A stretch of 64,000 nt of DNA from a virus. The position numbers and the translations under genes are program-made. Below, piece by piece: positions 3,784 to 23,200 of this stretch. Every line of letters starts with the position of its first letter. Within the stretch, counting starts at the first letter, position 1. The stretch spans positions 352 to 64,351 of IMG/VR virus record IMGVR_UViG_3300044728_000147. The stretch is one strand, 5' to 3'. The notes under the pieces are model-generated. The model worked only from the letters and a program-made list of their open reading frames with translations. It did no database searches and was not told where the DNA came from.

Positions 3784-4287
3784 GTGGATCTGGTACTCGT
3801 GCTCAACGACACTGACGAGCCTCTTGGGCTTGTTGACGTGGAACGTGCTGTCACGCTCGTCGTGCTCGGCCGTGCCGCTGTTGTGCTCGGCACTGGTAGG
3901 GTGCTGCACTCTCTCCACACTGAAGTAGCTGAGCCGTCAGTGATTCGCCTGCTCCGCAAGGTCAGGCCCCGGAGAGGCGACAGGGTGCCGCTGTCCCGCA
4001 AGGCCCTGTTCGCTCGCGACAACTACGAGTGTGCATTCTGCGGCGGTCACGCCGACACAATCGATCACGTGACCCCTAAAGCTCACGGCGGTAAGCATGA
4101 ATGGGCAAATGTCGTGGCCGCTTGTAGCCCTTGTAACCACTACAAGGCCGACCGCACGCCCGAAGAGGCCGGAATGAAACTGCGCTTCATCCCGTTCGTG
4201 CCTACCCGTTCATACATGCTCAGTTCTCGCGGGCGCCCCGAGTGGGACCAATTCCTGAATCTTGATACGGTAGACGCAGACGCATGA
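3784..4287 (+). CDS. HNH endonuclease
   Basis: RDNYECAFCG..TIDHVTP..GG..W.NVVAACSPCN..K. Confidence 0.9.
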   Translation: MDLVLVLNDTDEPLGLVDVERAVTLVVLGRAAVVLGTGRVLHSLHTEVAEPSVIRLLRKVRPRRGDRVPLSRKALFARDNYECAFCGGHADTIDHVTPKAHGGKHEWANVVAACSPCNHYKADRTPEEAGMKLRFIPFVPTRSYMLSSRGRPEWDQFLNLDTVDADA

Positions 4288-5075
4288 GGATCCTGATCCT
4301 AGGGGACACGCACGCTCACGAGCCTGCCATGGTAGAGGCGTACCACGCTGCCACAGAGCTTGGCCTCGATCGAATCTTCCAGGTCGGTGATTTCGGTTAC
4401 TGGCCTCGTAAGGCAGGTCCTGGGGGTGAGTCTGACTATCTCTTCACTGTCAACCGGCTCGGTTCTGAGACCGGTATTCCCTGCTACTGGCTGCCCGGAA
4501 ATCACGAGGACTGGCTGAGCTACGAGGAATTGTTTCAAGGTCCTATGGACGATGAAGGGTTCGCTGTGCACGGCTGGATGCGGGCAACGCCTCGCGTTCA
4601 CCGTTGGACGTGGGACAATCTCAAGTTTGGCTCGATCGGTGGAGCATTCTCGATCGACCGTTCGATGAGGAAAGAGGGCTGGTCCTGGTTCTACCAGGAG
4701 GTGCCTACGTGGCAGGATGCTGAAGCTCTGGGCGACGATCCGCTCGACGTGCTCCTGACGCACGATGGCCCTGTGAACGTAGCGACCGAGATTTTGGGAA
4801 AGCGCTCAATTGACTTCGGCGTAGAGGCGGGCGAAGCCGCTCAGTCTCAGGCCGTTATCGCTCAGGCCATGCTCAACACCCGGCCATCGATCACGTTCCA
4901 CGGGCATTGGCACTGTCGGACGTTCTACAAGTACCAGGGCATGAAGGTGCAGCTACTTGATATGGCGTCCGGCAACCCGACCGTTCAAGCTGGCGCCGTC
5001 CTTGACACAGTGAAGAGACGGTGGTACTCTCTCAATGAGTTCGCTTACGAACAGGAAGGCACAGAGATTCCATGA
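4284..5075 (+). CDS. Metallophosphoesterase
   Basis: GDTH, GDFG, GNHE, THD, HGHWH motifs. Confidence 0.9.
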   Translation: MRILILGDTHAHEPAMVEAYHAATELGLDRIFQVGDFGYWPRKAGPGGESDYLFTVNRLGSETGIPCYWLPGNHEDWLSYEELFQGPMDDEGFAVHGWMRATPRVHRWTWDNLKFGSIGGAFSIDRSMRKEGWSWFYQEVPTWQDAEALGDDPLDVLLTHDGPVNVATEILGKRSIDFGVEAGEAAQSQAVIAQAMLNTRPSITFHGHWHCRTFYKYQGMKVQLLDMASGNPTVQAGAVLDTVKRRWYSLNEFAYEQEGTEIP

Positions 5076-5506
5076 CGGGACAACTGATCTACACCATTGG
5101 CCTACCGGGGTCCGGCAAGAGCACGTGGGCCGAGGCCCAGCGCGCCGCTGACCCTGACAACGTACGGATTGTGAACAAGGATGACATCCGGGCAACGTTC
5201 GGTTGCTCGTTTGAACGTGGTGATGAGCCAACAGTCCACTCGATCAGCCGTGCAGCGATCCGAGGATTCCTCAAAAACGGTCACGCCGTGATCGTATCTG
5301 ACTTGAACCTGACGGCCAAGGGGCAGCGCGAGCTTACGGACTTGGCGCTGGACTGTGGTACTTCCGCTACGTCAGTTGATTTCCGGCACGTGCCAGTCGA
5401 GCTTTGCATCGAGAGGAACACGGCTCGTTGGGAAGCTGGCGACCGTAAGGTGCCGAACGATGTCATCTACGACCTGGCCACTCGCTACGGCTTGACGATT
5501 TCTTGA
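5072..5506 (+). CDS. Polynucleotide kinase (AAA_33 / Pnk kinase domain)
   Basis: GLPGSGKSTW P-loop, NKDDIR, CIERN..R. Confidence 0.85.
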   Translation: MTGQLIYTIGLPGSGKSTWAEAQRAADPDNVRIVNKDDIRATFGCSFERGDEPTVHSISRAAIRGFLKNGHAVIVSDLNLTAKGQRELTDLALDCGTSATSVDFRHVPVELCIERNTARWEAGDRKVPNDVIYDLATRYGLTIS

Positions 5507-5507
5507 G

Positions 5508-5536
5508 TTGTCAAACATTCGAAAGTCAGGTAGGAT
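5508..5536 (+). promoter_or_regulatory. SigA-type promoter for a leaderless mRNA
   Basis: TTGTCA-17-TAGGAT, ATG 7 nt downstream (5544). Confidence 0.6.
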
Positions 5537-5543
5537 TCCAGAT

Positions 5544-6497
5544 ATGCGTAAAGTAGCGGGATTCATCGTCATGCTCGTCCTTCTGGGACTGGGCCTCAAC
5601 AACACGTCGTTCGCTGATAGCGGATCAAACGGCGCCTCGTACTGGGAGAACTACGGCCCTCATCCGGCTCAGTGCTTCAAGCACGACTTCAGTGTCGGAT
5701 CGGTGGCCCATGGGTCTTCGAACGGCACTTCCGTGACCCTCAACCCGTTCGACCCATCATGGCCTGGTGACCACTGGGAATTGCTGGTAATCAAGGGCGG
5801 GTCCGATCAGAACGGTGGTGGAGACAACGTGATCGTCCACCCATCAGCCGGGGTGGCTTACTTCCCGCCACTGAACCCGCAGTCGGGGACTACGTTCGGC
5901 GTGAGCCACTGGATCGTGTGCAAGGGAACGACCCCTCAGACCACTACGACCACTACGACCACCACGACGTTGCCGGAAGATACGACGACAACGACCGTGC
6001 CTGATACGACGACCACGATTCCCGAAGTAGCCACAACGACCACTCAGCCACCTGTTACGACCACGACGGATCCTCAGGTCACAACGACCACTCAGCCCGC
6101 CACTACTACCGTAGTTCCGGTCCCTCAGGTTGGCACGAGCGCACCGACCTTTGTGGATCCGGTGTGTGGTGACGTCAAGGCTGGTGTCTTTGTGGCTGAC
6201 ACTGTTGGAGTCGTCTACGACGTAACGGGAGATATTGCTCCTGGTGGAACAGTTACGGTGACGGCCACGGCCAGCGCCGGATTCGTCTTGGCCCCGGAGG
6301 CCGTGACGGTGTGGACCCACACGTTCGCAACGATTGACCCCAACTGTGAAGTCACGACCACCACGGTCAACCCGGTTGACACTCCGCTTCCGGAAACGGG
6401 CGGCAGCGACACCGGGAAGAAAATCGCAACAGTCCTTGCACTAATTGCTCTCGGTGGAGTAATGTTGCGACTAGGACGACGTAAGACGACCGCCTAG
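5544..6497 (+). CDS. Secreted LPXTG-type surface protein with Thr-rich linker
   Basis: Signal peptide (MRKVAGFIVMLVLLGL..SFA), poly-Thr repeats, LPETGG + hydrophobic helix + RRK tail. Confidence 0.8.
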   Translation: MRKVAGFIVMLVLLGLGLNNTSFADSGSNGASYWENYGPHPAQCFKHDFSVGSVAHGSSNGTSVTLNPFDPSWPGDHWELLVIKGGSDQNGGGDNVIVHPSAGVAYFPPLNPQSGTTFGVSHWIVCKGTTPQTTTTTTTTTTLPEDTTTTTVPDTTTTIPEVATTTTQPPVTTTTDPQVTTTTQPATTTVVPVPQVGTSAPTFVDPVCGDVKAGVFVADTVGVVYDVTGDIAPGGTVTVTATASAGFVLAPEAVTVWTHTFATIDPNCEVTTTTVNPVDTPLPETGGSDTGKKIATVLALIALGGVMLRLGRRKTTA

Positions 6498-6505
6498 GAG
6501 GTTCC

Positions 6506-7579
6506 GTGTTCGACACGGCAGAACTAACTGAATACGCCGCACAAGGCAAGATCAAGCGGAGTAGCCGAGATGGCTACTCCGTTTGGTGCTACACGCAGGC
6601 AACTGTCTACGATCGCCTCTGGGACGAGGTGACCATGGCCTGCCGTGGTCTCGTGACCCGCGACTCTGACGGTGCTCTGATTTCTCGGCCGTTCCGGAAG
6701 TTCTTCAACGTGGGTGAGCCTGAGGCCGTCGTGCGTCAGGATCGATTTTTCGCCTACGACAAGATGGACGGCTCTCTGATCATTGTCGGGCGCGATCCCG
6801 ACACCAACGAGGCCATCGTCAGCACCAAGGGTTCGTTCGACACCTGGCACAGTGAGACCGCTCACTACCTTCTGAGTGGATTTATTCCGCCGATAGGTGT
6901 GACTGTCATCTTCGAATTGATTCACCCCGACAACAGGATCGTGCTCGACTATCAGGGCTACGAGGGCCTGTACCTGTTAGGTGCGATCGACAATGAGACG
7001 GGTGCTGACGTTGGCACGTCCGAAGAGGTGGCTGATTACACCGGCTGGCACGGTGACGTTGTGACCCGTCGCTCGTTTGATCTGGGTCGGATGATCGAGA
7101 CCGTCAAGAATCCCGAGAACGGCGAGGGTCGCGAGGGATTTGTTATCGTGTGGCCGACTGACGAAGGTCCCTGGGATCGAGTCAAGCTGAAGTTCGCTCA
7201 CTACGTGCAGCTTCATGGGATCTACACTGGTTTGACCAACCGCAAGGTCTGGGAAGTGCTCCAGGACGATACGTGGGAGCAGTGGAACGCTCTTCTAGAA
7301 ATAGCGCCGGACGAACTGCACGACGCAATAAAGTCGTGCGCCAGGGAAATCGGTGACCAGGCTGAAGAGCTTGAGTTAGAGGCCGTGGAATTGGCTGGGC
7401 ACGTCTGGAGCTACCCACATCGCAAGGCTCAGGCCGAGTACATCTTGGCTCACTCACGACGTCCCGTGACGAGTCTGGCGTTTGCTGCCCTCGACGGTAA
7501 GAACGTGGGTAAGCTCGCCCTACAACAGGTCAAGCCTGAGGAAAGCCGTGTCCTGGCGACAACGCTCCGAGACGAGTGA
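6506..7579 (+). CDS. RNA ligase, T4 Rnl1 family
   Basis: CRGLV, RPFRKFFN, KMDGSL motif I, FELI, EGFV, VKLK. Confidence 0.9.
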   Translation: MFDTAELTEYAAQGKIKRSSRDGYSVWCYTQATVYDRLWDEVTMACRGLVTRDSDGALISRPFRKFFNVGEPEAVVRQDRFFAYDKMDGSLIIVGRDPDTNEAIVSTKGSFDTWHSETAHYLLSGFIPPIGVTVIFELIHPDNRIVLDYQGYEGLYLLGAIDNETGADVGTSEEVADYTGWHGDVVTRRSFDLGRMIETVKNPENGEGREGFVIVWPTDEGPWDRVKLKFAHYVQLHGIYTGLTNRKVWEVLQDDTWEQWNALLEIAPDELHDAIKSCAREIGDQAEELELEAVELAGHVWSYPHRKAQAEYILAHSRRPVTSLAFAALDGKNVGKLALQQVKPEESRVLATTLRDE

Positions 7580-15797: not shown

Positions 15798-16159
15798 GGG
15801 TCTGACGGGTATCGATTCGGTGCCGGTCTTGACTACTTGCGTGATCCAGCGCCCGCAGTCTGGCATTCAGCGGGAAACCTCAAACGACACCTTGTCGGAT
15901 GAAACCGTGATCGAGATCGAAATGGCTGGTCTCGACACCGAGTACGCTGCGCTAGTCGCAGAGTTCTCGTTGATCGCTGCCTAAGCGACACCATGGCTAA
16001 CCGGAGCCGTGCTAACCCAATCCGGTACCAATACGGTTGCCACTCCGTAAAAGTGGATGGCGCCCCTGCAATACGGTGCCGATGCCGCCTCATCGGACAG
16101 ATCACGTAGACGGTACCGAGACACACAGGAAGACGGGAGTTCAACTCTCCCCAGATCCA
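15798..16159 (+). ncRNA. ssrA: tmRNA
   Basis: Acceptor GGGTCTG/CAGATCC with G3-U, discriminator A, T-arm GGGAG-TTCAACT-CTCCC, internal ORF ending FSLIAA-stop, 362 nt. Confidence 0.9.
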
Positions 16160-16204
16160 CTACCAGGGAGTTTCAAAGAAATCTGAGAAATCTTCCGAAA
16201 ATGG

Positions 16205-16233
16205 TTGACAAGCCCCAAAGCCTGTGCTAGGTT
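16205..16233 (+). promoter_or_regulatory. Strong SigA-type promoter for the tRNA array
   Basis: TTGACA-17-TAGGTT with TG extended -10. Confidence 0.7.
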
Positions 16234-16435
16234 GGTGAATGAACTCCGGTTGACTACCCGGCACCGAGAGGTGTGGTCCGGACCCCATAAGGGGATAAGC
16301 CCGCAAGGGGAATCTTACGTGTGGTGAAGGCATGATCTACAGGTCTGCTCAGTGAGGTTTACGAGCCACGTTCGCGTGGCCCATACATGCTTCACGGCCT
16401 GACTGTCGGAGAAACAACAGATACTTCGACGTATT

Positions 16436-16509
16436 GCTTCTCTAGCCCAATTGGCAGAGGCGCTTGTTTCAAAAGCAAGTTAGTGAGGGTTCGAATCCCT
16501 TGAGAAGCA
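16436..16509 (+). tRNA. tRNA-Leu(CAA), short variable loop
   Basis: CTTGT-TTCAAAA-GCAAG anticodon arm; full cloverleaf. Confidence 0.85.
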
Positions 16510-16652
16510 CTCCCTCCGCACCTGAGTAGTGGGTGAGTCGGTGCCTGCGAGGCAGGCCTTGAACAGCCGAAGTGAGGGTCTAAGAGATAAAGAAAGTGGA
16601 GGGGACGCCGCCGTTCAACCAGGCGTGACAAGTGGGGAGAGACCTACAACAT

Positions 16653-16728
16653 GCTCCGGTCGATTAGCGGCTAAGTCCCCACCCTCTCAAGGTGGTGATC
16701 GCGGGTTCGAGTCCCGTCCGGAGTACCA
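16653..16728 (+). tRNA. tRNA-Glu(CTC)
   Basis: CCACC-CTCTCAA-GGTGG; CCA end. Confidence 0.92.
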
Positions 16729-16852
16729 GGGCATCAGGCGTTTAAAGACCTAACCAACGCCGCAACGAGTAGCGCCTTTCAAGGGTGGTCCCCAGAGAGA
16801 CGCAGGTTGTTGCGGTCTCGGGCAGCCGGGATACGAATGGCGTTCGCTTCGA

Positions 16853-16926
16853 GGGGATCTCGTATAGAGGTAGTACAAGGGCTTCCAAACCCCTTAGTGT
16901 GGGTTCGATTCCTACGGTCCCTGCCA
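16853..16926 (+). tRNA. tRNA-Trp(CCA)
   Basis: Loop TTCCAAA; G73; CCA. Confidence 0.85.
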
Positions 16927-16995
16927 TCTACAAATAAACAACATGGCGTCCTGCACCTCGGGACTTGTAAAGCCGCCTAGCGGAACGAGGTACTT

Positions 16996-17071
16996 GGGTG
17001 TGTGATGTTAGTGGTAAGCATTGCTGTCTCTTAAACAGTCTGGGCGGGTTCGAATCCTGTCACACCTACCA
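16996..17071 (+). tRNA. tRNA-Lys(CTT)
   Basis: GCTGT-CTCTTAA-ACAGT; CCA. Confidence 0.92.
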
Positions 17072-17072
17072 T

Positions 17073-17147
17073 GCTGATCGGTCCCCCTGGTAGAGGGAAT
17101 CACGCTGATAACGTGATCGCGAGTGGGTTCGATTCCCCTGATCAGTA
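17073..17147 (+). tRNA. tRNA-Ile(GAT)
   Basis: TCACG-CTGATAA-CGTGA. Confidence 0.85.
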
Positions 17148-17199
17148 CTAGGATCAGCGCACTGGCCCTATACAAATGGGCGGGTAGCGGGGTCCGCAC

Positions 17200-17273
17200 G
17201 CCGGTATAGCTCAACGGAAGAGCACTTGCTCGGTAAGCAAGTGATCAGGGTTCAATTCCCTGTGTCGGCTCCA
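17200..17273 (+). tRNA. tRNA-Thr(GGT)
   Basis: CTTGC-TCGGTAA-GCAAG; CCA. Confidence 0.9.
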
Positions 17274-17275
17274 AT

Positions 17276-17350
17276 TGTGGCGTAGTGTAACAGGAAGCAC
17301 GAAATGCTGTTAACATTTTAGTATGGGTTCGAAGCCTATCGTCACAGCCA
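17276..17350 (+). tRNA. tRNA-Asn(GTT)
   Basis: AAATG-CTGTTAA-CATTT; GCCA end. Confidence 0.9.
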
Positions 17351-17868
17351 ACGAAAGATCAGATGCCGTCATCTCGTGGAGAAAGCGAACACGACGGCGT
17401 TTGGTTGATCTCCATGGTGGAAAATGCAAGAGATGCGGGTGGCACGGCCACACCGCTGGATTTGATTTCCACCACCTCTACGACAAGGACAGCAGCATTT
17501 CTCAAATGTTGTCGTCGCCACGTAGGTGGGATCTTATCCTTGCGGAAGCAGCGAAGTGTGAACTTCTATGTGCTATCTGTCATCGTCTTGAGCACTCCGG
17601 TCGTGATTACGACTTACTGCTTGATGGCCCGTTGGAGAGGGAGACTTGCCGAAAGACCTGCCTGAATTGCGAAACACAAATCCGGTGCAGAGGAATCAGG
17701 TGTGGAAAGTGTAGTCGGATAGCGACTACCAAGGGATCTTGGCCCCTCACCGTAGAAGAAATTCTTAGTGATGTTAAAGCACTTGGTTGGTGTGGTTCGG
17801 GAAGAAAGTATGGCGTTTCAGACAGCGCCGTACGGAAAAGAGTTAAACGTCTTGGTGGCATAGTGTAG
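17323..17868 (+). CDS. HNH homing-type endonuclease overlapping tRNA-Asn and tRNA-Asp
   Basis: GGKCKRCG..FDFHH..KCELLCAICHRLEH, second CxxC pair, C-terminal HTH (GRKYGVSDSAVRKR). Confidence 0.85.
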   Translation: MGSKPIVTANERSDAVISWRKRTRRRLVDLHGGKCKRCGWHGHTAGFDFHHLYDKDSSISQMLSSPRRWDLILAEAAKCELLCAICHRLEHSGRDYDLLLDGPLERETCRKTCLNCETQIRCRGIRCGKCSRIATTKGSWPLTVEEILSDVKALGWCGSGRKYGVSDSAVRKRVKRLGGIV

Positions 17869-17929
17869 CGGCTCTGCACGTAACCCTGTCAAGGTTAAAG
17901 TCCGGGATCGTCCCCCGGTGTCATCGCCA
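17854..17929 (+). tRNA. tRNA-Asp(GTC)
   Basis: TAACC-CTGTCAA-GGTTA; GCCA. Confidence 0.88.
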
Positions 17930-17982
17930 TCTAACTACGGCCTGAAAACGGCCCTACCGGGGGGAAGTGCCCCGGCACCCAT

Positions 17983-18051
17983 GCTCTCGGGTGCGGAAAC
18001 CACGCAGGCCTTCTAAGCCAGCCTTCTCGGGTTCGAATCCTGACGAGAGCG
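17983..18051 (+). tRNA. tRNA-Arg(TCT), reduced D-arm
   Basis: Loop CTTCTAA; acceptor GCTCTCG/CGAGAGC. Confidence 0.75.
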
Positions 18052-18193
18052 CCGACCGCAAGACGTTCTTCGGAGCTAGGAATGCGGGTGGATGATCAAG
18101 CACCTCTTGATCCCTATAGAAGACGGCTAAAGGGTTAGGCTTGCCGAGAACCTACGGATTAATCGGGGACGCCTGAGAGAGACGTAGCACCAT

Positions 18194-18268
18194 GTGGATA
18201 TGGTCCAGCGGCGAAGATCCCTGCTTGCCAAGCAGGGGACGGGGGTTCAATTCCCCCTATCCACACCA
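18194..18268 (+). tRNA. tRNA-Gly(GCC)
   Basis: CCTGC-TTGCCAA-GCAGG; CCA. Confidence 0.9.
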
Positions 18269-18269
18269 T

Positions 18270-18345
18270 GTTCCTGTAGCTCAGGGGAAAGAGCAGGTGT
18301 TTCCTAAACACCGTGTCGGGGGTTCGATTCCCTCCAGGGACGCCA
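18270..18345 (+). tRNA. tRNA-Arg(CCT)
   Basis: GGTGT-TTCCTAA-ACACC; CCA. Confidence 0.92.
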
Positions 18346-18349
18346 ACAT

Positions 18350-18434
18350 GCTCTCGTGGCGGAACAGGCATACGCGCTGGTCTTAGAAACCAGTGTCCAC
18401 GGACGTGAGGGTTCAAATCCCTCCGAGAGCACCA
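18350..18434 (+). tRNA. tRNA-Leu(TAG), long variable arm
   Basis: CTGGT-CTTAGAA-ACCAG; CCA. Confidence 0.92.
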
Positions 18435-18435
18435 T

Positions 18436-18509
18436 GCTGACGTGACCCAACTGGCAGAGGTACTTGACTCAGACTCAAGTTGTTGGAGGTTCGAATCCTC
18501 TCGTCAGTA
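18436..18509 (+). tRNA. tRNA-Leu(CAG), short variable loop
   Basis: CTTGA-CTCAGAC-TCAAG. Confidence 0.88.
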
Positions 18510-18516
18510 CCCACAT

Positions 18517-18590
18517 GCGTTCCTGACCCAACTGGCAGAGGTGCTTGGATGAGAGCCAAGATGTTGGGGGTTCGAATCCCCCGGAGCGCA
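18517..18590 (+). tRNA. tRNA-Leu(GAG), short variable loop
   Basis: CTTGG-ATGAGAG-CCAAG. Confidence 0.85.
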
Positions 18591-18623
18591 CTGAGACAGC
18601 AGGTGGTAGCTGCTGTCTTGCAT

Positions 18624-18699
18624 GGTGATTGAATCCAAACGGTGCGGACGCAGGCTGTGAACCTGTGTTTAGCGAGTTCGACTCTCGTCATTCACCCCA
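18624..18699 (+). tRNA. tRNA-His(GTG) with encoded G-1
   Basis: GCAGG-CTGTGAA-CCTGT; C73; CCA. Confidence 0.88.
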
Positions 18700-18707
18700 A
18701 TCGTTAC

Positions 18708-18801
18708 CCTGCCCACGCAGGGGAACCTGCTCCAAAGTACACGGAGCTATTGCCCGATGATCAAGGGTAGTTGAGGCCAGGTTAGATTCCTGGGCGGGCC
18801 A
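18708..18801 (+). ncRNA. Atypical tRNA-like RNA
   Basis: T-arm-like CCAGG-TTAGATT-CCTGG, 5'/3' pairing CCTGC/GCGGG, CCA end, no canonical anticodon arm. Confidence 0.4.
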
Positions 18802-18843
18802 AGATGGCTCGTTGTCTGTTGAGACTCAGCAGCGTGGGAACAA

Positions 18844-18918
18844 CTAGATGTAGCGCAGCTTGGATAGCGCGCCTGGTTCGGATCCAGGAGGTCGGAGGTT
18901 CAAATCCTCCCATCTAGA
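18844..18918 (+). tRNA. tRNA-Pro(CGG)
   Basis: CCTGG-TTCGGAT-CCAGG. Confidence 0.92.
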
Positions 18919-18952
18919 CTGCTCCGGCCCGGAGGAAGTATAGGGCAATCAT

Positions 18953-19033
18953 GCTCCGGTAGACAAATTGGTAAAGTCGCCAGTCTTTCAAACTGGTCCG
19001 AAAGGATTGCGGGTTCGATTCCCGTTCGGAGTG
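18953..19033 (+). tRNA. tRNA-Glu(TTC) with a variable arm
   Basis: CCAGT-CTTTCAA-ACTGG followed by TCC-GAAA-GGA extra arm. Confidence 0.85.
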
Positions 19034-19146
19034 CGAGCGAGGGTCGGGTGCCGAAAGCACCAGTTGCAAGCCTCGGTTGCGGTTATTACACGGCCGTAAA
19101 GGTTGCGGACGGTTCACAAAGAGTGTTCTCGTCGTGGTGGCCCCAT

Positions 19147-19222
19147 GGGGAATTGGTGTTAATGGCAAGCACGACTGCCTTGCAAGCAGTAGGAGAGGTT
19201 TCGACTACCTCATTCTCCACCA
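19147..19222 (+). tRNA. tRNA-Ala(TGC)
   Basis: ACTGC-CTTGCAA-GCAGT; G3-U70; CCA. Confidence 0.92.
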
Positions 19223-19223
19223 T

Positions 19224-19295
19224 GGTCTTGTAGCTCAGTGGAAGAGCGCTTCTATGACACGGAAGAGGTCGAGGGTTCAATCCCCTCCGAGACTA
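19224..19295 (+). tRNA. tRNA-Val(GAC)
   Basis: CTTCT-ATGACAC-GGAAG. Confidence 0.88.
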
Positions 19296-19297
19296 CT

Positions 19298-19394
19298 GGT
19301 TCTGCAATAAGCCGTATGTCACCGGGTTGAGAGTCCCGGTCGTCGGGGGGTTACCCTCGGCGTAGCTCAGGAAGAGCAGCGGATGAGCGGAGCC
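19298..19394 (+). ncRNA. Circularly permuted tRNA mimic (YrlA-type Y RNA-like)
   Basis: Order T-arm, closed acceptor hairpin, D-arm, all inside terminal stem GGTTCTGC/GCGGAGCC. Confidence 0.65.
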
Positions 19395-19399
19395 AACAT

Positions 19400-19471
19400 A
19401 CTGAGATGGTGTAACCGGCAACACTTCTGACTCTGAATCAGACATCGAGGGTTCGAACCCTTCTCTCAGTG
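19400..19471 (+). tRNA. tRNA-Gln(CTG)
   Basis: TCTGA-CTCTGAA-TCAGA. Confidence 0.9.
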
Positions 19472-19473
19472 CT

Positions 19474-19551
19474 GGGAAGGTAGTGTAAAGTTCGCGCACA
19501 CCGGCCACCAAGGCCGGGAGTACGGTAGTAGCGACCCGTCAATTCCCACCA
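19474..19551 (+). ncRNA. Degenerate tRNA-like RNA
   Basis: D-arm GTGT/GCAC, CCGGCC/GGCCGG arm, non-canonical T-loop, ACCA end. Confidence 0.5.
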
Positions 19552-19552
19552 A

Positions 19553-19644
19553 TGTAACGTCGCAGTACCCGTGGTGTAACGGCAGCACGGTCGAAGATAG
19601 TCGACAGGTCGAGGTTCAAATCCTCGCGGTTGCTCGGCGTTGCA
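19553..19644 (+). ncRNA. tRNA mimic with extended acceptor helix and 6-nt anticodon loop
   Basis: Canonical D and T arms; GTCGA-AGATAG-TCGAC; outer 10-bp helix TGTAACGTCG/CGGCGTTGCA. Confidence 0.6.
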
Positions 19645-19648
19645 CAAT

Positions 19649-19719
19649 GGGGACGTAGTTCAACGGAAGAACGTTGCTATGGCATGGCAAATATGGGTGT
19701 TCGATTCACCTCGTCTCCA
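19649..19719 (+). tRNA. tRNA-Ala(GGC)
   Basis: TTGCT-ATGGCAT-GGCAA; G3-U70. Confidence 0.88.
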
Positions 19720-19721
19720 CG

Positions 19722-19820
19722 AGCGCAGCCCGTCGCGACGGGATGCAGTGTTTAGTGTAGTGGAAGCACGCCGGGCAACCCCGGAAGGAACGATGTCGAA
19801 ACCGTAGCACTGTAAGCGCT
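19722..19820 (+). ncRNA. tRNA mimic lacking an anticodon
   Basis: GCAGTGTT/AGCACTGT acceptor, D-arm, CCGGG-CAAC-CCCGG 4-nt loop, outer AGCGC/GCGCT helix. Confidence 0.55.
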
Positions 19821-19825
19821 TACAA

Positions 19826-19900
19826 CAGGCTGTAGCTCAGTTTGGATAGAGTGCCTGGTCGGGATCCAGGAAGTCGCAGGTTCAAGTCCTGCCAGTCTGA
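19826..19900 (+). tRNA. tRNA-Pro(GGG)
   Basis: CCTGG-TCGGGAT-CCAGG. Confidence 0.9.
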
Positions 19901-19951
19901 CGAGTGTGAGTTGTCGGTGCCCCACCTTACAAGCGGGAACCGTCTACCTAT

Positions 19952-20027
19952 TCCGGGGAGGGGCCGGTGCCTCACCCTGGCTTTGAACCAGGTGTCCCTC
20001 TGGGTTCGACACCTAGCCCCGGAGCCA
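19952..20027 (+). tRNA. tRNA-Gln(TTG), atypical D-arm
   Basis: CCTGG-CTTTGAA-CCAGG; TCCGGGG/CCCCGGA; GCCA. Confidence 0.8.
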
Positions 20028-20033
20028 TTTCAT

Positions 20034-20106
20034 GCACCGGTAGCTCAGGGGTAAGAGCAGGATCCTTACAAGATCAAGGTCGGGGGTTCAAATCCCTCTC
20101 GGTGTA
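20034..20106 (+). tRNA. tRNA-Val(TAC)
   Basis: Loop CTTACAA; cloverleaf. Confidence 0.88.
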
Positions 20107-20188
20107 CGCAGGTACGCTGATCTGGAAACCTGAGGGACACCCACGTGGTTAGGCCTCATAGTAAGGACCCTCTTAAAGATCAGCACAT

Positions 20189-20259
20189 GCGGTAGAGATG
20201 TTACGGCAGCATCCCTGTCTTCCAAACAGGTCGCGGGAGTTCGACTCTCCCTTACCGCA
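20189..20259 (+). tRNA. tRNA-Gly(TCC)
   Basis: CCTGT-CTTCCAA-ACAGG. Confidence 0.88.
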
Positions 20260-20309
20260 CGCACCCTCCCCCCGACCGTTGGCCAGGAATGACGGGGGAG
20301 GGTTACCGA

Positions 20310-20384
20310 CAGTCTGTAGGAAAGCGGAAATCCGCCTGGTTTGGATCCAGGAGACCGTGGGTTCGACCCCCACCAGACTGACCA
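20310..20384 (+). tRNA. tRNA-Pro(TGG)
   Basis: CCTGG-TTTGGAT-CCAGG; CCA. Confidence 0.9.
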
Positions 20385-20527
20385 CGCATTCATGCGTGTG
20401 GTGGAGGTGACGGGTTTCTCCGGAAATCAGTAGCCCCGAATACAACGGGCCTTTGGGCCTAGGGGTGCGTGCGCCCTCTCTCCTAATGGAGAGTGATCGT
20501 AAAGCCGATCAGTGAAAGCACGAGCAT

Positions 20528-20600
20528 GGTTCTTTGGTGTATCTGGAAGACACGCCTGTCTGAAAAGCAGGAGGATCGGGTTCGACCCCCGGAGGGACCA
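20528..20600 (+). tRNA. tRNA-Phe(GAA)
   Basis: CCTGT-CTGAAAA-GCAGG. Confidence 0.88.
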
Positions 20601-20750
20601 CTTCACACTAACCAGTGAAAAGTATGGCCAGGTACTACAACCCTGGCAGCGGCTATCATCGGCTACACTGGTGAAACAGGGCGAGCGTAACGTCCCTATG
20701 AGTCGGGTGGTTCCGACGAAACGCATCGGCGGGGTAGCTCCCCGCCACTC

Positions 20751-20837
20751 GGAAGGTAAATCAGGTCGGGAGCCTGAGGCGTCCTGCTAAGACGTACGTA
20801 CCATGTGTATCCGCTTCGATTGCGGTGCCTTCCTCCA
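20751..20837 (+). tRNA. tRNA-Ser(GCT), 8/4 fold
   Basis: Acceptor GGAAGGTA/TGCCTTCC, T-stem CCGC/GCGG, loop CTGCTAA. Confidence 0.85.
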
Positions 20838-20909
20838 TGCGCGATAGAGAAGCGGCATCTCGTCAGCCTCATAAGCTGGAAAACATCGGTTCGAGTCCGA
20901 TTCGCGCCT
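20838..20909 (+). tRNA. tRNA-Met(CAT), initiator-like 1:72 mismatch
   Basis: TCAGC-CTCATAA-GCTGG; T1/C72 unpaired. Confidence 0.8.
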
Positions 20910-21078
20910 CTCTGAGTTACCTGGCGTCCGGCTGAGTGTGTCAGCACAATTCCGGGCGTTCAGCACGTCGGCCCATTAAGCCGAAGGCCCTGGACAGATC
21001 CAGGAACCGCCATAGCAGTGCGGTTTGGTGTAGCGAGGTAACTGCTACGGGCTGGCTGACACCGGCCCTTGGTTCTTT

Positions 21079-21161
21079 GGAAGGTAACCCGAGACGGGAT
21101 CTCGGCACGACCTGGAAAGTCGCTGGTGCTAACGCATGGGTTTCGACTACTCTGCCTTCCG
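21079..21161 (+). tRNA. tRNA-Ser(GGA), 8/4 fold
   Basis: 8-bp acceptor, 4-bp T-stem, loop CTGGAAA. Confidence 0.85.
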
Positions 21162-21233
21162 CTGGTCAGGTAGCACGACTACTTGATCGAATCCTCCGCA
21201 CCTTCCCCTAGAGTGGGGGAATGGTGCGGCTAT

Positions 21234-21316
21234 GGAGAGTGAATCGAGACGGGATCTCGGCGCTGCCTTGAAAACAGATGGCACTCACGTGTGGGCTTCG
21301 AATGCTCCGCTCTCCG
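21234..21316 (+). tRNA. tRNA-Ser(TGA), 8/4 fold
   Basis: GGAGAGTG/CGCTCTCC, loop CTTGAAA. Confidence 0.8.
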
Positions 21317-21320
21317 CGAC

Positions 21321-21374
21321 GGTTGATGGTTTGGCTGAGTGCTAGCTCTCGGGGTTCGAATCCTCTCATCAACC
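21321..21374 (+). ncRNA. Truncated tRNA-like minihelix RNA
   Basis: GGTTGATG/CATCAACC + GGGG-TTCGAAT-CCTC T-arm, one small internal hairpin. Confidence 0.5.
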
Positions 21375-21378
21375 TCTA

Positions 21379-21464
21379 GGAAAGTGAACCGGACAGGCGT
21401 ACCGGCTCCGTCTCGAAAACGGGTGGCCCGAGAGGGTGGGTTTCAAGTACTCCGCTTTCCGCCA
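21379..21464 (+). tRNA. tRNA-Ser(CGA), 8/4 fold
   Basis: GGAAAGTG/CGCTTTCC, loop CTCGAAA, GCCA. Confidence 0.85.
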
Positions 21465-21472
21465 AACAAAGT

Positions 21473-21727
21473 CTGTGCTCGACAGACCGCCGCTGCCATT
21501 TCTTTGAGGTGGTAGAGGAAGTTCAGGACACCGCTGCATGACGTAGGAGGCCTAACAAGCCGATTGGACTAGGGCGGGTGCAACACGTACAGATCAGAGC
21601 CGGACGTGCAGGGCTATGACGATCGGGTAGTGGCAGCCGGTACCCGAGAGGGTGCCACCATGGCAACGCTTCGGCGTTAGACGGATGGCGGTCTGAAATA
21701 ACAGAATCCTGGCTACGTAGAGCACAG
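21473..21727 (+). ncRNA. rnpB: Compact RNase P RNA (phage-encoded)
   Basis: P1 CTGTGCTC/GAGCACAG, P2 AGACCGCC/GGCGGTCT, P3 hairpin, CR-I GAGGAAGTTCAGGAC, CR-IV TAGACGGATG, CR-V AACAGAATCCTGGCTAC; P4 with bulged U. Confidence 0.85.
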
Positions 21728-21733
21728 TTTCAT

Positions 21734-21806
21734 GCCCCTTTGGTGTAATGGAAAGCATTACCGACTTTTAATCGGTCAGGTGCAGGTTCGAGTCCTGTTG
21801 GGGGCA
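21734..21806 (+). tRNA. tRNA-Lys(TTT)
   Basis: ACCGA-CTTTTAA-TCGGT. Confidence 0.9.
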
Positions 21807-21903
21807 CTCAAGGGATGCCGCAACGAAAGGCTGCGTGTCACGAGGCGTACATCCTGAGCACGCGATTCAGTACGAACGTACGGGTCAACATCCCTTGAAT
21901 CAT

Positions 21904-21974
21904 GGCGATTGACATGGTTGTCTCGGATCTTTCATACGGATCTAGGCGGGGTTCGACTCCCCGATTCGCTACCA
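21904..21974 (+). tRNA. tRNA-Met(CAT), reduced D-arm
   Basis: GATCT-TTCATAC-GGATC; ACCA. Confidence 0.75.
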
Positions 21975-21975
21975 T

Positions 21976-22052
21976 GCGCCGTTCGCTTTCTGGATGATGG
22001 CGGTAGCCTGCAAAGCTACTATAGGGGGGTTCGATTCCGCCACGGCGCTCCA
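21976..22052 (+). tRNA. tRNA-Cys(GCA)
   Basis: GTAGC-CTGCAAA-GCTAC; U73; CCA. Confidence 0.85.
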
Positions 22053-22057
22053 ATCAT

Positions 22058-22132
22058 GCCCCGTTGGTGAAATGGATATCATAAGGCGCTTCGAACGCTT
22101 TGTTCCCGGTTCGAGTCCGAGGCGGGGTACCA
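22058..22132 (+). tRNA. tRNA-Arg(TCG)
   Basis: AGGCG-CTTCGAA-CGCTT; CCA. Confidence 0.88.
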
Positions 22133-22133
22133 T

Positions 22134-22205
22134 GCTTTCGCTGATGGATTCAGTGCTGACCCTGCGAAGGTCGGATAGCAAGTTCGATTCTTGTCGAGAG
22201 CGCCA
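22134..22205 (+). tRNA. tRNA-Arg(GCG)
   Basis: TGACC-CTGCGAA-GGTCG; GCCA. Confidence 0.8.
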
Positions 22206-22206
22206 T

Positions 22207-22281
22207 GCTCGCTTAGCCCAACGGGAAGGAGGCGAGGCACTTAAAACGCCTACAGTACGGGTTCGAATCCCGTAGCGAGTA
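22207..22281 (+). tRNA. tRNA-Leu(TAA), short variable loop
   Basis: Loop CTTAAAA; Leu-type D-arm. Confidence 0.82.
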
Positions 22282-22307
22282 CTTGAATACCAGGATAGGC
22301 TGGACAG

Positions 22308-22715
22308 ATGAACACGAGAAAACAAGGTGACATTGGAGTGGCGCAAGCTATTTACTATTTCACGAATCTCGGATACACCGTCTCAGTTCCCATGAGTGAG
22401 TCGTCCAGATACGATCTGATTGTAGATACTGGAGAGCAGCTTCTACGAGTTCAATGTAAACGTAGTGAATCCGCTGCTCCTAGTGGCTCACCCTCCGTAG
22501 CACTTCGTACTTGTGGTGGAAATCAATCCTGGAATCACGTTGCAAAGAAATTGTCAGCCAGTGAGATCGATTATTTGTGGGCCTCCTACGGATCGAGAGG
22601 CTGGCTAATTCCCATCAGTGAAGTAGAAGGTAAAAGCTCAGTCACGTTGGGGCCATCCAAGGATGAATTCTTGGTCTTTGGGTCAGATGGAAGTGGTCTT
22701 TCAGCCTCTCTGTAA
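22308..22715 (+). CDS. PD-(D/E)XK endonuclease (group I intron-associated family)
   Basis: KQGDIG..GY.VS.P...YDLIVD...RVQCK. Confidence 0.85.
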   Translation: MNTRKQGDIGVAQAIYYFTNLGYTVSVPMSESSRYDLIVDTGEQLLRVQCKRSESAAPSGSPSVALRTCGGNQSWNHVAKKLSASEIDYLWASYGSRGWLIPISEVEGKSSVTLGPSKDEFLVFGSDGSGLSASL

Positions 22716-22763
22716 AAGAGGTGCCTGCGGGCAATGTGTGTTCGATTCGCACCTGGCTCACCA
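22680..22763 (+). tRNA. tRNA-Tyr(GTA)
   Basis: CCTCT-CTGTAAA-AGAGG, long variable arm, ACCA. Confidence 0.85.
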
Positions 22764-22764
22764 T

Positions 22765-22842
22765 GCTCTTCGGTCTAGGGCGTCTGGTTGACGCCAGATG
22801 TCTTATGAACATCCGGAAGGGGTTCGATTCCTCCGGGGAGCA
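22765..22842 (+). tRNA. tRNA-Ile(TAT), atypical 5' connector
   Basis: GATGT-CTTATGA-ACATC; GCTCTTC/GGGGAGC. Confidence 0.7.
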
Positions 22843-22989
22843 CGTAGTAGCACCAACTGCTATACGCCCACATCGTTTCTGTGGCGTCTAACTCACCGAC
22901 GTTAATGGCGGGTGGCTAACCGGCTATGTCGATATAATCCGGGGGGAATGGCAAGTCTCCACAAGGGGTGGTACCCAAGCTTCCTACCT

Positions 22990-23059
22990 GCCGATACTGA
23001 CGGACAGCAGCTTCACTCGTAATGAAGCTATCGGGGTTCGACTCCCCGTATCGGCTCCA
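22990..23059 (+). tRNA. tRNA-Thr(CGT), reduced D-arm
   Basis: CTTCA-CTCGTAA-TGAAG; CCA. Confidence 0.8.
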
Positions 23060-23060
23060 T

Positions 23061-23133
23061 GCCGTTAGTCTCGATGGTCGAGCGCTTGCCTTGTAAGCAA
23101 GTATCAGGGGTTCGATTCCTCCTAGCGGCTCCA
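23061..23133 (+). tRNA. tRNA-Thr(TGT)
   Basis: CTTGC-CTTGTAA-GCAAG; CCA. Confidence 0.88.
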
Positions 23134-23157: not shown

Positions 23158-23200
23158 AGACGATTCAATTCCCAGCAGGAATTGGGTCGTCTTTGCTATT
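23158..23200 (+). terminator. Intrinsic terminator closing the tRNA array
   Basis: agacgattcaattcc-cagca-ggaattgggtcgtct + T-rich tail. Confidence 0.7.

Follow-up and report, generated by a model that had tools for sequence, protein, structure and literature searches.

The stretch 21473-21727 is identified here as a phage-encoded, reduced homolog of RNase P RNA with an intact catalytic domain, located inside a tRNA array. By its core motifs and helix covariation the RNA is assigned to the RNase P RNA superfamily, and its homologs place it in a large and wide viral family. The role that we consider most probable (probability of about 0.68) is that of a ribozyme trimming the 5' ends of the tRNAs from the phage's own array, probably in association with host RnpA. 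The window (the whole stretch of 64,000 nucleotides that was analysed) belongs to a 99.6-kb virus record which is 68% complete. The record carries genes of terminase, portal, tape measure, DNA polymerase A and WhiB, and it also encodes an RNA ligase together with a phosphoesterase and an AAA protein that is kinase-like. The virus is classified from its sequence as a tailed phage; since it has a WhiB gene, its host is probably an actinobacterium. The structural elements of the RNA and its surroundings are listed in Table 1.

Table 1. Position of the RNase P RNA gene in the window, its neighbours and its assigned structural elements.
Feature	Position	Strand	Remarks
tmRNA and tRNA array containing the RNase P RNA	15798..23133	+	ARAGORN
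tRNA-Ser(CGA), 8/4 type, CCA encoded	21379..21464	+	ends 8 nt upstream of the RNase P RNA
Reduced RNase P RNA gene	21473..21727	+	255 nt; RF00010 46.2 bits, E 2.7e-13
P1	21473-21483 with 21717-21727	+	9/9 pairs changed on both sides (alignment A2)
P2	21484-21491 with 21687-21694	+	6/6 pairs changed on both sides, 96% paired
P3 hairpin	21493-21515	+	fold; 4/4 pairs changed on both sides
CR-I	21515-21529	+	contains P4 5' strand 21520-21528, bulged U 21523
P5	21529-21532 with 21577-21580	+	100% paired; 4/4 pairs changed on both sides
P6 pseudoknot with loop L17	21534-21540 with 21605-21611	+	4/4 pairs changed on both sides
S-domain remnant	21542..21573	+	32 nt; P7 21542-46 with 21569-73
Apical stem-loop of the remnant	21549-21561	+	variable among copies
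Extruded U...A loop, T-loop candidate	21564-21568	+	alignment columns
J5/15 adenines	21582-21583	+	A248/A249 equivalents; invariant
P15, P16, P17, L17	21584..21632	+	P15 = 21584-86 with 21630-32; helices covary
Kink-turn sequence between P16 and P17	21596..21620	+	GA 21597-98, 3-nt bulge 21615-17, GA 21618-19
GGU	21626-21628	+	predicted partner of tRNA CCA; invariant in A1, A2
Two optional hairpins at the P18 position, GNRA and UUCG loops	21636..21678	+	fold z -3.6
CR-IV	21678-21687	+	sequence, RF00010 match, alignment
CR-V	21700-21716	+	contains P4 3' strand 21707-21714
tRNA-Lys(UUU)	21734..21807	+	starts 6 nt downstream of the RNase P RNA

In a focused scan RF00010 matched positions 21474-21730 with the score given in Table 1, so that the covariance-model match named beforehand as a check of the initial annotation was obtained. 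The same model gives 37.7 bits (E 1.3e-10) on the bare 21473-21727 stretch. The gathering threshold of RF00010 is 100 bits and the window RNA lies well under it, which is why it was missed by annotation; at the Rfam gathering thresholds no RNase P match appears in the window. A search of the whole 99.6-kb record (G000) with RF00010 returned 0 matches. As the focused scan finds the RNA and the whole-record search does not, standard filters lose such copies. The family HMM recognises the window copy with E 5e-29, this copy being itself a part of the training set. The fold of the RNA has a stability z of -2.5 with 0 of 200 shuffles equally stable, and a loose two-motif pattern has a single occurrence in the window, while 200 shuffled windows combined also give one.

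The core includes helices P1-P5 together with CR-I, CR-IV and CR-V. The length of 255 nt, the P1 (21473-21480 with 21720-21727) and P2 pairings, the order of the three motifs and P4 with its bulged U had all been claimed in the initial annotation and are confirmed from the sequence. The claimed 10-bp P3 holds when the invariant C-G and three G-U pairs are counted; 9 bp are formed in the isolated fold. P4 differs from the Rfam consensus by four compensatory pairs with the geometry of 3 bp, bulged U and 5 bp kept. The bulged U was assigned to 21523 because the preceding U varies (U/C/G) together with its partner in homologs. This residue is the equivalent of E. coli U69 and is invariant in 45/45 copies of alignment A1 and 52/52 copies of alignment A2, as are in both alignments the equivalents of C70, A248/A249 and G292-G293-U294. 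A1 consists of 45 copies, and A2 of 52 copies taken from 85 non-redundant well-parsed ones with long inserts excluded. The A2 fold model comprises 53 pairs, 90.9% paired vs 60.3% in shuffled and 31-44% in slid controls; 49 of the 53 pairs changed on both sides, and so did 34/38 pairs in A1.

The column pairs of A1 and A2 were chosen on the same alignments, and therefore the least biased evidence is provided by the test of P4, where the scan patterns specified just the outer letters of the two motifs and left five P4 positions free. All five free positions are paired in 154 of the 183 distinct cores among the matches listed; shuffling of the 3' halves gives a mean of 21 and a maximum of 35 (2000 trials). 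At least four of the five P4 pairs are present in 161 cores, which show 57 different P4 sequences among the matches listed; the remaining 22 cores look like chance matches. Covariation of P1-P4 among homologs, the other check proposed in advance, is present in every one of these helices. Ordered CR-I/IV/V, the bulged U of P4 and covariation of P1-P3 and P5 are among the features by which clan CL00002, the RNase P RNA superfamily, is recognised, and all of them are found in the RNA.

The 7-bp pairing between 21534-21540 and 21605-21611 had been taken for the helix closing the S-domain. Covariation and an alignment-free test identify it instead as the P6 pseudoknot with loop L17: the mean longest Watson-Crick run is 5.0 vs 3.2 with shuffled partners (79 of 85 copies parsed), with a shuffled maximum of 3.5 in 1000 trials. 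The minimum-energy fold of the whole RNA joins the P6 arms into one long stem, and this explains the previous S-domain stem model; the single long stem is overruled by covariation. The P16/P17 arm alone is not stable by folding energy. The canonical kink-turn pattern between P16 and P17 is present in the window copy and in 38/138 family segments vs 4.5 in shuffles (maximum 10), a count from which the parser misses some segments. A cytosine at position 3b, as in the window copy, lets a k-turn fold in Mg without protein. The kink between P16 and P17, in some RNAs a k-turn, is described as allowing L17 to dock (PMC3672288). The kink-turn was also considered as a sign of archaeal origin, and this was rejected, some bacterial RNAs being reported to carry one (PMC3672288).

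Since the 7-bp helix is P6, the S-domain is limited to a remnant of 32 nt and not to the ~70 nt assumed previously; 47 nt lie between the P5 strands, the remnant included. Its parts are P7, an internal loop that is conserved and an apical stem-loop that varies. The extruded 5-nt loop has U at the first and A at the last position in 37/45 copies and a purine at position 4 in 12/45. A compensatory change of A-U to G-C at 21545/21570 of P7 was found in contigs of two RNA runs belonging to a near-identical strain. The remnant alone is not stable by folding energy. P8-P12 and CR-II/CR-III are absent, and the vestigial CR-II/III-like motifs suggested earlier had to be abandoned: no conserved CR-II/III vestige is seen in the alignments, and the loop at this place is occupied by tetraloops or long inserts in homologs. 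The module reading the tRNA elbow is lost in nearly all copies of the family. The two hairpins at the P18 position are variable and absent in many homologs; docking of P18 on P8, a feature of type A, is not found, P8 being absent.

The array around the RNA consists of 36 ARAGORN genes (35 tRNA and 1 tmRNA), lies on the + strand throughout and is closed by a terminator-like hairpin (23158-23192). A sigma-70 promoter scan gave no signal above chance, and no ORF of >=80 aa overlaps 21473-21727. The tRNA context given in the initial annotation was correct in that 1-nt gene junctions are numerous, four tRNA-Ser are of the 8/4 type and G-1 of tRNA-His is encoded. These four (20751-20837, 21081-21163, 21234-21319 and 21379-21464; 8-bp acceptor, 4-bp T-stem) are all the tRNA-Ser of the window and were missed by default ARAGORN and Rfam; 8/4 tRNAs have been described previously. 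Among the 34 window tRNAs passing a filter which favours normal tRNAs, U occupies position -1 in 27, CCA is encoded in 16, C56 is kept in 34 and the D-loop GG in 32. The statement that no rnpA is present holds even for the 99.6-kb record (68% complete), in which neither PF00825 nor, for the L7Ae family, PF01248 found a match.

Several other features of the window are worth mentioning. The tRNA array is interrupted by two ORFs which are possibly homing nucleases: one at 17323-17868 (cysteine-rich, HNH-like by eye, without a Pfam match) and one at 22308-22715 (PD-(D/E)XK endonuclease, its end overlapping tRNA-Tyr). The inter-tRNA spacers within 19910-20830 contain several long near-perfect hairpins, e.g. 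near 20266-20302 and 20108-20186. The genes of the phosphoesterase, the AAA_33 kinase-like protein and the T4 Rnl1-type RNA ligase are clustered at 4284-7579 and likely represent a tRNA repair set.

The size of the viral family was estimated by several scans. The 3' core motif was found at 65 loci of viral contigs, and 45 of them have the 5' motif upstream (<=2 substitutions, 103-273 nt upstream of the 3' motif). Two outer-letter scans gave at least 229 loci with 183 distinct cores among the matches listed, and a profile built as a sequence model from 52 copies matches at least 243 of the 413 viral loci, representing 171 distinct strings and 151 clusters at 90% identity; all these counts are lower bounds, as two size ranges above 220 nt lay outside the scans. 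The carrier contigs are in many cases 100-500 kb long. Two members scoring 133 and 96 bits lie unannotated in the huge-phage records LR756501.1 (735 kb; L121 at 181315-181535) and LR756502.1 (642 kb; L122), respectively. Blastn against cultured-phage records returned tRNA matches and three huge-phage metagenome records, and no cultured carrier. A narrow pattern with the P4 letters of the window gave 16 matches in 185,579 cellular genomes. Thirteen of them have no partner motif and 3 are real: one RNA is identical to that of a 455-kb viral contig, another resides in an array of 20 tRNAs, and the third lies on a 13-kb contig. In the tests run, which for cellular genomes covered the window P4 letters, the RNA appears to be virus-specific and strongly conserved in structure.

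One copy (L018, 378 nt) is located among tRNAs of a 265-kb viral contig. It is a near-full class A copy with P4 letters identical to those of the window, and with 170 bits it passes the RF00010 cut-off. Intermediates such as L177 (73 bits) lead down to copies of about 175 nt such as L015. We infer that the ancestor was a class A RNA of bacteria and that its S-domain was lost step by step. An archaeal source of the P4 letters was tried and rejected: P4 is different in 25/25 parsed archaeal copies (31 examined, all from one phylum).

Some members deviate from the common plan. Those of about 175 nt (L015, L072, L114, L166, L186) seem to have neither P16/P17 nor P6 and score best with the archaeal model (45 bits for L015). 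Two members on contigs from two metagenome bins (L203:2990-3240 and L191:2809-3079) are circularly permuted and have no P1; in both of them the same short linker joins CR-V to the 5' strand of P2. Their new ends differ, those of L203 lying at the P18 position and those of L191 within P3. That one P1-less form is permuted in two ways suggests a circular intermediate. L203 keeps CR-II/III-like motifs and has class B as its best match. In L124:1786-1983 and L178:1768-1971 an open frame of 65-67 aa fills the S-domain remnant and continues through the RNA. The frame contains CxH and CxxC motifs with faint zinc-finger Pfam hints only, and the conserved purine run atop P7 doubles as its ribosome-binding-like site; it is possible that this ribozyme gene also codes for a protein. 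About 400 extra bases are inserted into the S-domain remnant of L134:1425-2025 (482-kb viral contig). Of the two tandem copies in L165:1985-2433, the upstream one differs in P4 and seems to have no 3' core; a permuted tmRNA is nearby. Matches to GOLLD RNA and Y-RNA-like (YrlA) RNA lie beside members in tRNA arrays (L177:2690-3152, L018:1977-2088, L203:4259-4359).

Same-strand tRNAs are found within 2 kb of 110 of the 141 parsed copies (two loci being counted twice) and within 30 nt of 55; no copy has opposite-strand tRNAs, and 31 have no tRNA nearby. None of 13 capsid relatives (44-57% identity; ten fragments <50% complete, one complete record and two 87-88% complete) carries the RNA, the positive control on G000 having worked. 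The complete relative (106 kb) has 31 tRNAs in the part fetched and no copy of the RNA. The host enzyme therefore suffices there, and the idea that such an array needs its own RNA is not sustained. The suggested tuning to atypical tRNAs fares no better: U(-1) occurs in 549/802 (68%) tRNAs of carriers vs 78/117 (67%) in non-carrier relatives, and CCA is encoded in 416/802 (52%) vs 64/117 (55%), so that a fit to odd tRNAs is unsupported. C56 (96% vs 100%) and the D-loop GG (93% vs 98%) are slightly rarer near carriers, each with an uncorrected p of about 0.04 which is not relied on. Tuning aside, 8/4-like tRNA-Ser are present in two relatives (fragments) where no copy was found. Because 0/13 relatives carry the RNA and the tRNAs of carriers are not unusual, it is regarded as an accessory and not as a requirement. 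Contigs from 3 of 4 RNA runs (three studies) cover the RNA at a depth of 2-6 without strand information, a weak indication, and two of these runs also cover a nearby coding stretch.

The 5'-trimming of the phage's own tRNAs could proceed as follows. The RNase P RNA would be co-transcribed with the tRNAs and then set free by their processing, as cleavage in front of tRNA-Lys would create the 3' end of the RNA. The kink-turn would bend P16/P17, allowing L17 to form P6 and to set L15. The catalytic Mg ions are expected to be held by P4 with its bulged U, and the cleavage site and the CCA end to be gripped by J5/15 and GGU. These assignments follow the description of U69 as a Mg-binding residue needed for chemistry and not for binding, of A248 as a contact at the cleavage site and of G292-U294 as pairing with the tRNA 3' end (PMC11221534). 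P7 with one extruded loop may stand in for the pair of T-loops by which the tRNA elbow is read, in the way modelled for archaeal type T. Host RnpA would bind the conserved core; RnpA proteins are reported to be interchangeable between species, and the bacterial C-domain alone to cleave pre-tRNA whether or not RnpA is present, though more slowly and with weaker affinity (PMC4919922). The likely benefit is an extra 5'-processing capacity during a burst of phage tRNA synthesis. The ligase, the phosphoesterase and the kinase-like protein are the usual parts of tRNA repair and were counted in favour of a tRNA-processing role. Several observations weigh against the ribozyme. CR-II/III, P8-P14 and the S-domain contacts are gone, a loss that in bacterial RNAs leads to lower rate and affinity (PMC4919922), and the CCA with which GGU would pair is encoded in only 16/34 window tRNAs. 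The low Rfam score, the absence from the 13 capsid relatives, the equal tRNA features of carriers and non-carriers, the 31/141 copies away from tRNAs, a purine at position 4 of the T-loop candidate in only 12/45 copies and the inactivity of the camelpox P-like RNA (PMC3001073) count against it as well. A broader interpretation, to be taken as tentative, is that the family may constitute an RNase P class of the phages' own: a type A RNA stripped in parallel to type T down to the catalytic domain and one stem with a single T-loop, with its own P4 signature and a self-folding kink-turn, active with little or no protein and self-excised from the array. The same tentative interpretation would make the family plastic and include in it the about-175-nt, the naturally permuted P1-less and the frame-bearing copies.

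It is conceivable, if unlikely, that the RNA is an active nuclease used mainly for non-standard substrates (phage tmRNA, short hairpin RNAs, mRNA leaders, 8/4 or repaired tRNAs), where the S-domain could be dropped because the elbow need not be read. Invariant catalytic letters next to a lost elbow-reading module would fit this, as would the 31/141 copies without nearby tRNAs, the many non-tRNA substrates of bacterial RNase P (PMC4919922) and the 8/4 type of four out of four window tRNA-Ser. However, 110/141 copies stand among same-strand tRNAs, the CCA-binding GGU is invariant, and the 34 filtered window tRNAs are normal in C56 (34/34) and mostly in the D-loop GG (32), with the reservation that the filter favours such tRNAs; 8/4-like tRNA-Ser also occur in the two relatives, fragments in which no copy was found. 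Somewhat less probable still is a decoy whose P RNA-like fold binds host RnpA or pre-tRNA ends, or absorbs an anti-phage nuclease, catalysis being unneeded; such a decoy would shift tRNA maturation toward the phage. The loss of the S-domain would weaken catalysis, the patchy presence would suit an arms-race gene, and the same role was proposed for the inactive P-like RNA of camelpox virus (PMC3001073). Such a molecule would hardly preserve the bulged U and the helix geometry through 57 P4 variants (among the matches listed), given that U69 is reported to matter for chemistry and not for binding (PMC11221534).

The low Rfam score, the large deletion and the size gradient from 378 nt to about 175 nt could also be expected of a decaying fragment of host rnpB carried along with tRNA genes and functionless now. 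This origin is very improbable: covariation in every helix, the remnant P7 included, largely refutes it, and the compensatory pair change in the near-identical strain and the near absence of the exact P4 letters from 185,579 cellular genomes (3 real of 16 matches) argue in the same direction. The trimming of the phage's own tRNAs remains the reading that we prefer.

A search of the open literature, with subscription journals outside its reach, found no report of a phage RNase P RNA; the main texts of a huge-phage paper (PMC7162821) and of a survey of viral structured RNAs (PMC10690425) do not name RNase P. New in the present analysis are the unbiased P4 test, the anatomy of P6 and P7, the kink-turn with the type T parallel, and the negative results on capsid relatives and tRNA features. 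RNase P RNA is regarded as a housekeeping gene of cells, and its presence is used to judge the completeness of their genomes. With a widespread viral family, tRNA maturation would join the parts of translation that phages carry. This family also offers about 150 naturally occurring versions of a minimal catalytic domain, with which the smallest natural RNase P ribozyme and the measuring of the cleavage site without the double T-loop become testable. Copies under the Rfam cut-off escape current annotation, even in the 735-kb LR756501.1.

The only other virus-encoded P-like RNA found in the open literature is that of camelpox virus and other orthopoxviruses. It is an animal virus candidate with partial structural likeness, described as inactive in vitro (PMC3001073); it has no tRNA array and no demonstrated relation to the phage family. 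Diverged RNAs of CPR bacteria (Patescibacteria) resemble the phage RNA in that they are reported to be found only under model cut-offs and to have S-domain helices such as P12-P14 missing (PMC8172020). They are cellular, the phage deletion is far larger than theirs, and about two-thirds of them are described as lacking the CCA-binding motif (PMC8172020), which is invariant in the phage family.

The best Rfam match is the bacterial type A RNA (E. coli M1 RNA, Thermotoga maritima P RNA; RF00010). Both share P1-P5, P4 of 3 bp, bulged U and 5 bp, CR-I/IV/V, the J5/15 adenines, P15 with GGU, and P16/P17 with the P6 pseudoknot; the L15 GGU and the J5/15 adenines are invariant in the family, the pairing with CCA being predicted. 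Unlike type A, the RNA is virus-encoded and has 255 nt vs 367 positions of the model, its score stays below the RF00010 threshold, P8-P14 with CR-II/III are absent, four P4 pairs are compensatorily different from the Rfam consensus, two optional hairpins replace P18 and its docking, and the record has no rnpA. The full-length viral relative whose P4 letters are identical scores above the type A cut-off. With archaeal type T the RNA has in common an S-domain cut back to a single stem that carries one extruded loop (PMC13462272), and a P6 pseudoknot with a kink-turn at P16/P17 (PMC13462272, PMC7191817). The type T S-domain was modelled as one stem with one T-loop stacking on the tRNA elbow (PMC13462272). 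The kink-turn beside P6 is present in the phage RNA, yet it is not diagnostic of type T because some bacterial RNAs have it too (PMC3672288). Type T belongs to the cell itself and acts together with Pop5, Rpp30, Rpp29 and L7Ae, whereas the phage RNA is carried by a virus whose WhiB gene points to Actinobacteria and not to an archaeal host, and whose record gave no PF01248 match for an L7Ae partner. Probably the likeness to type T is convergent, because the carrier is a WhiB phage without an L7Ae gene and the larger members of the family point to bacterial class A.
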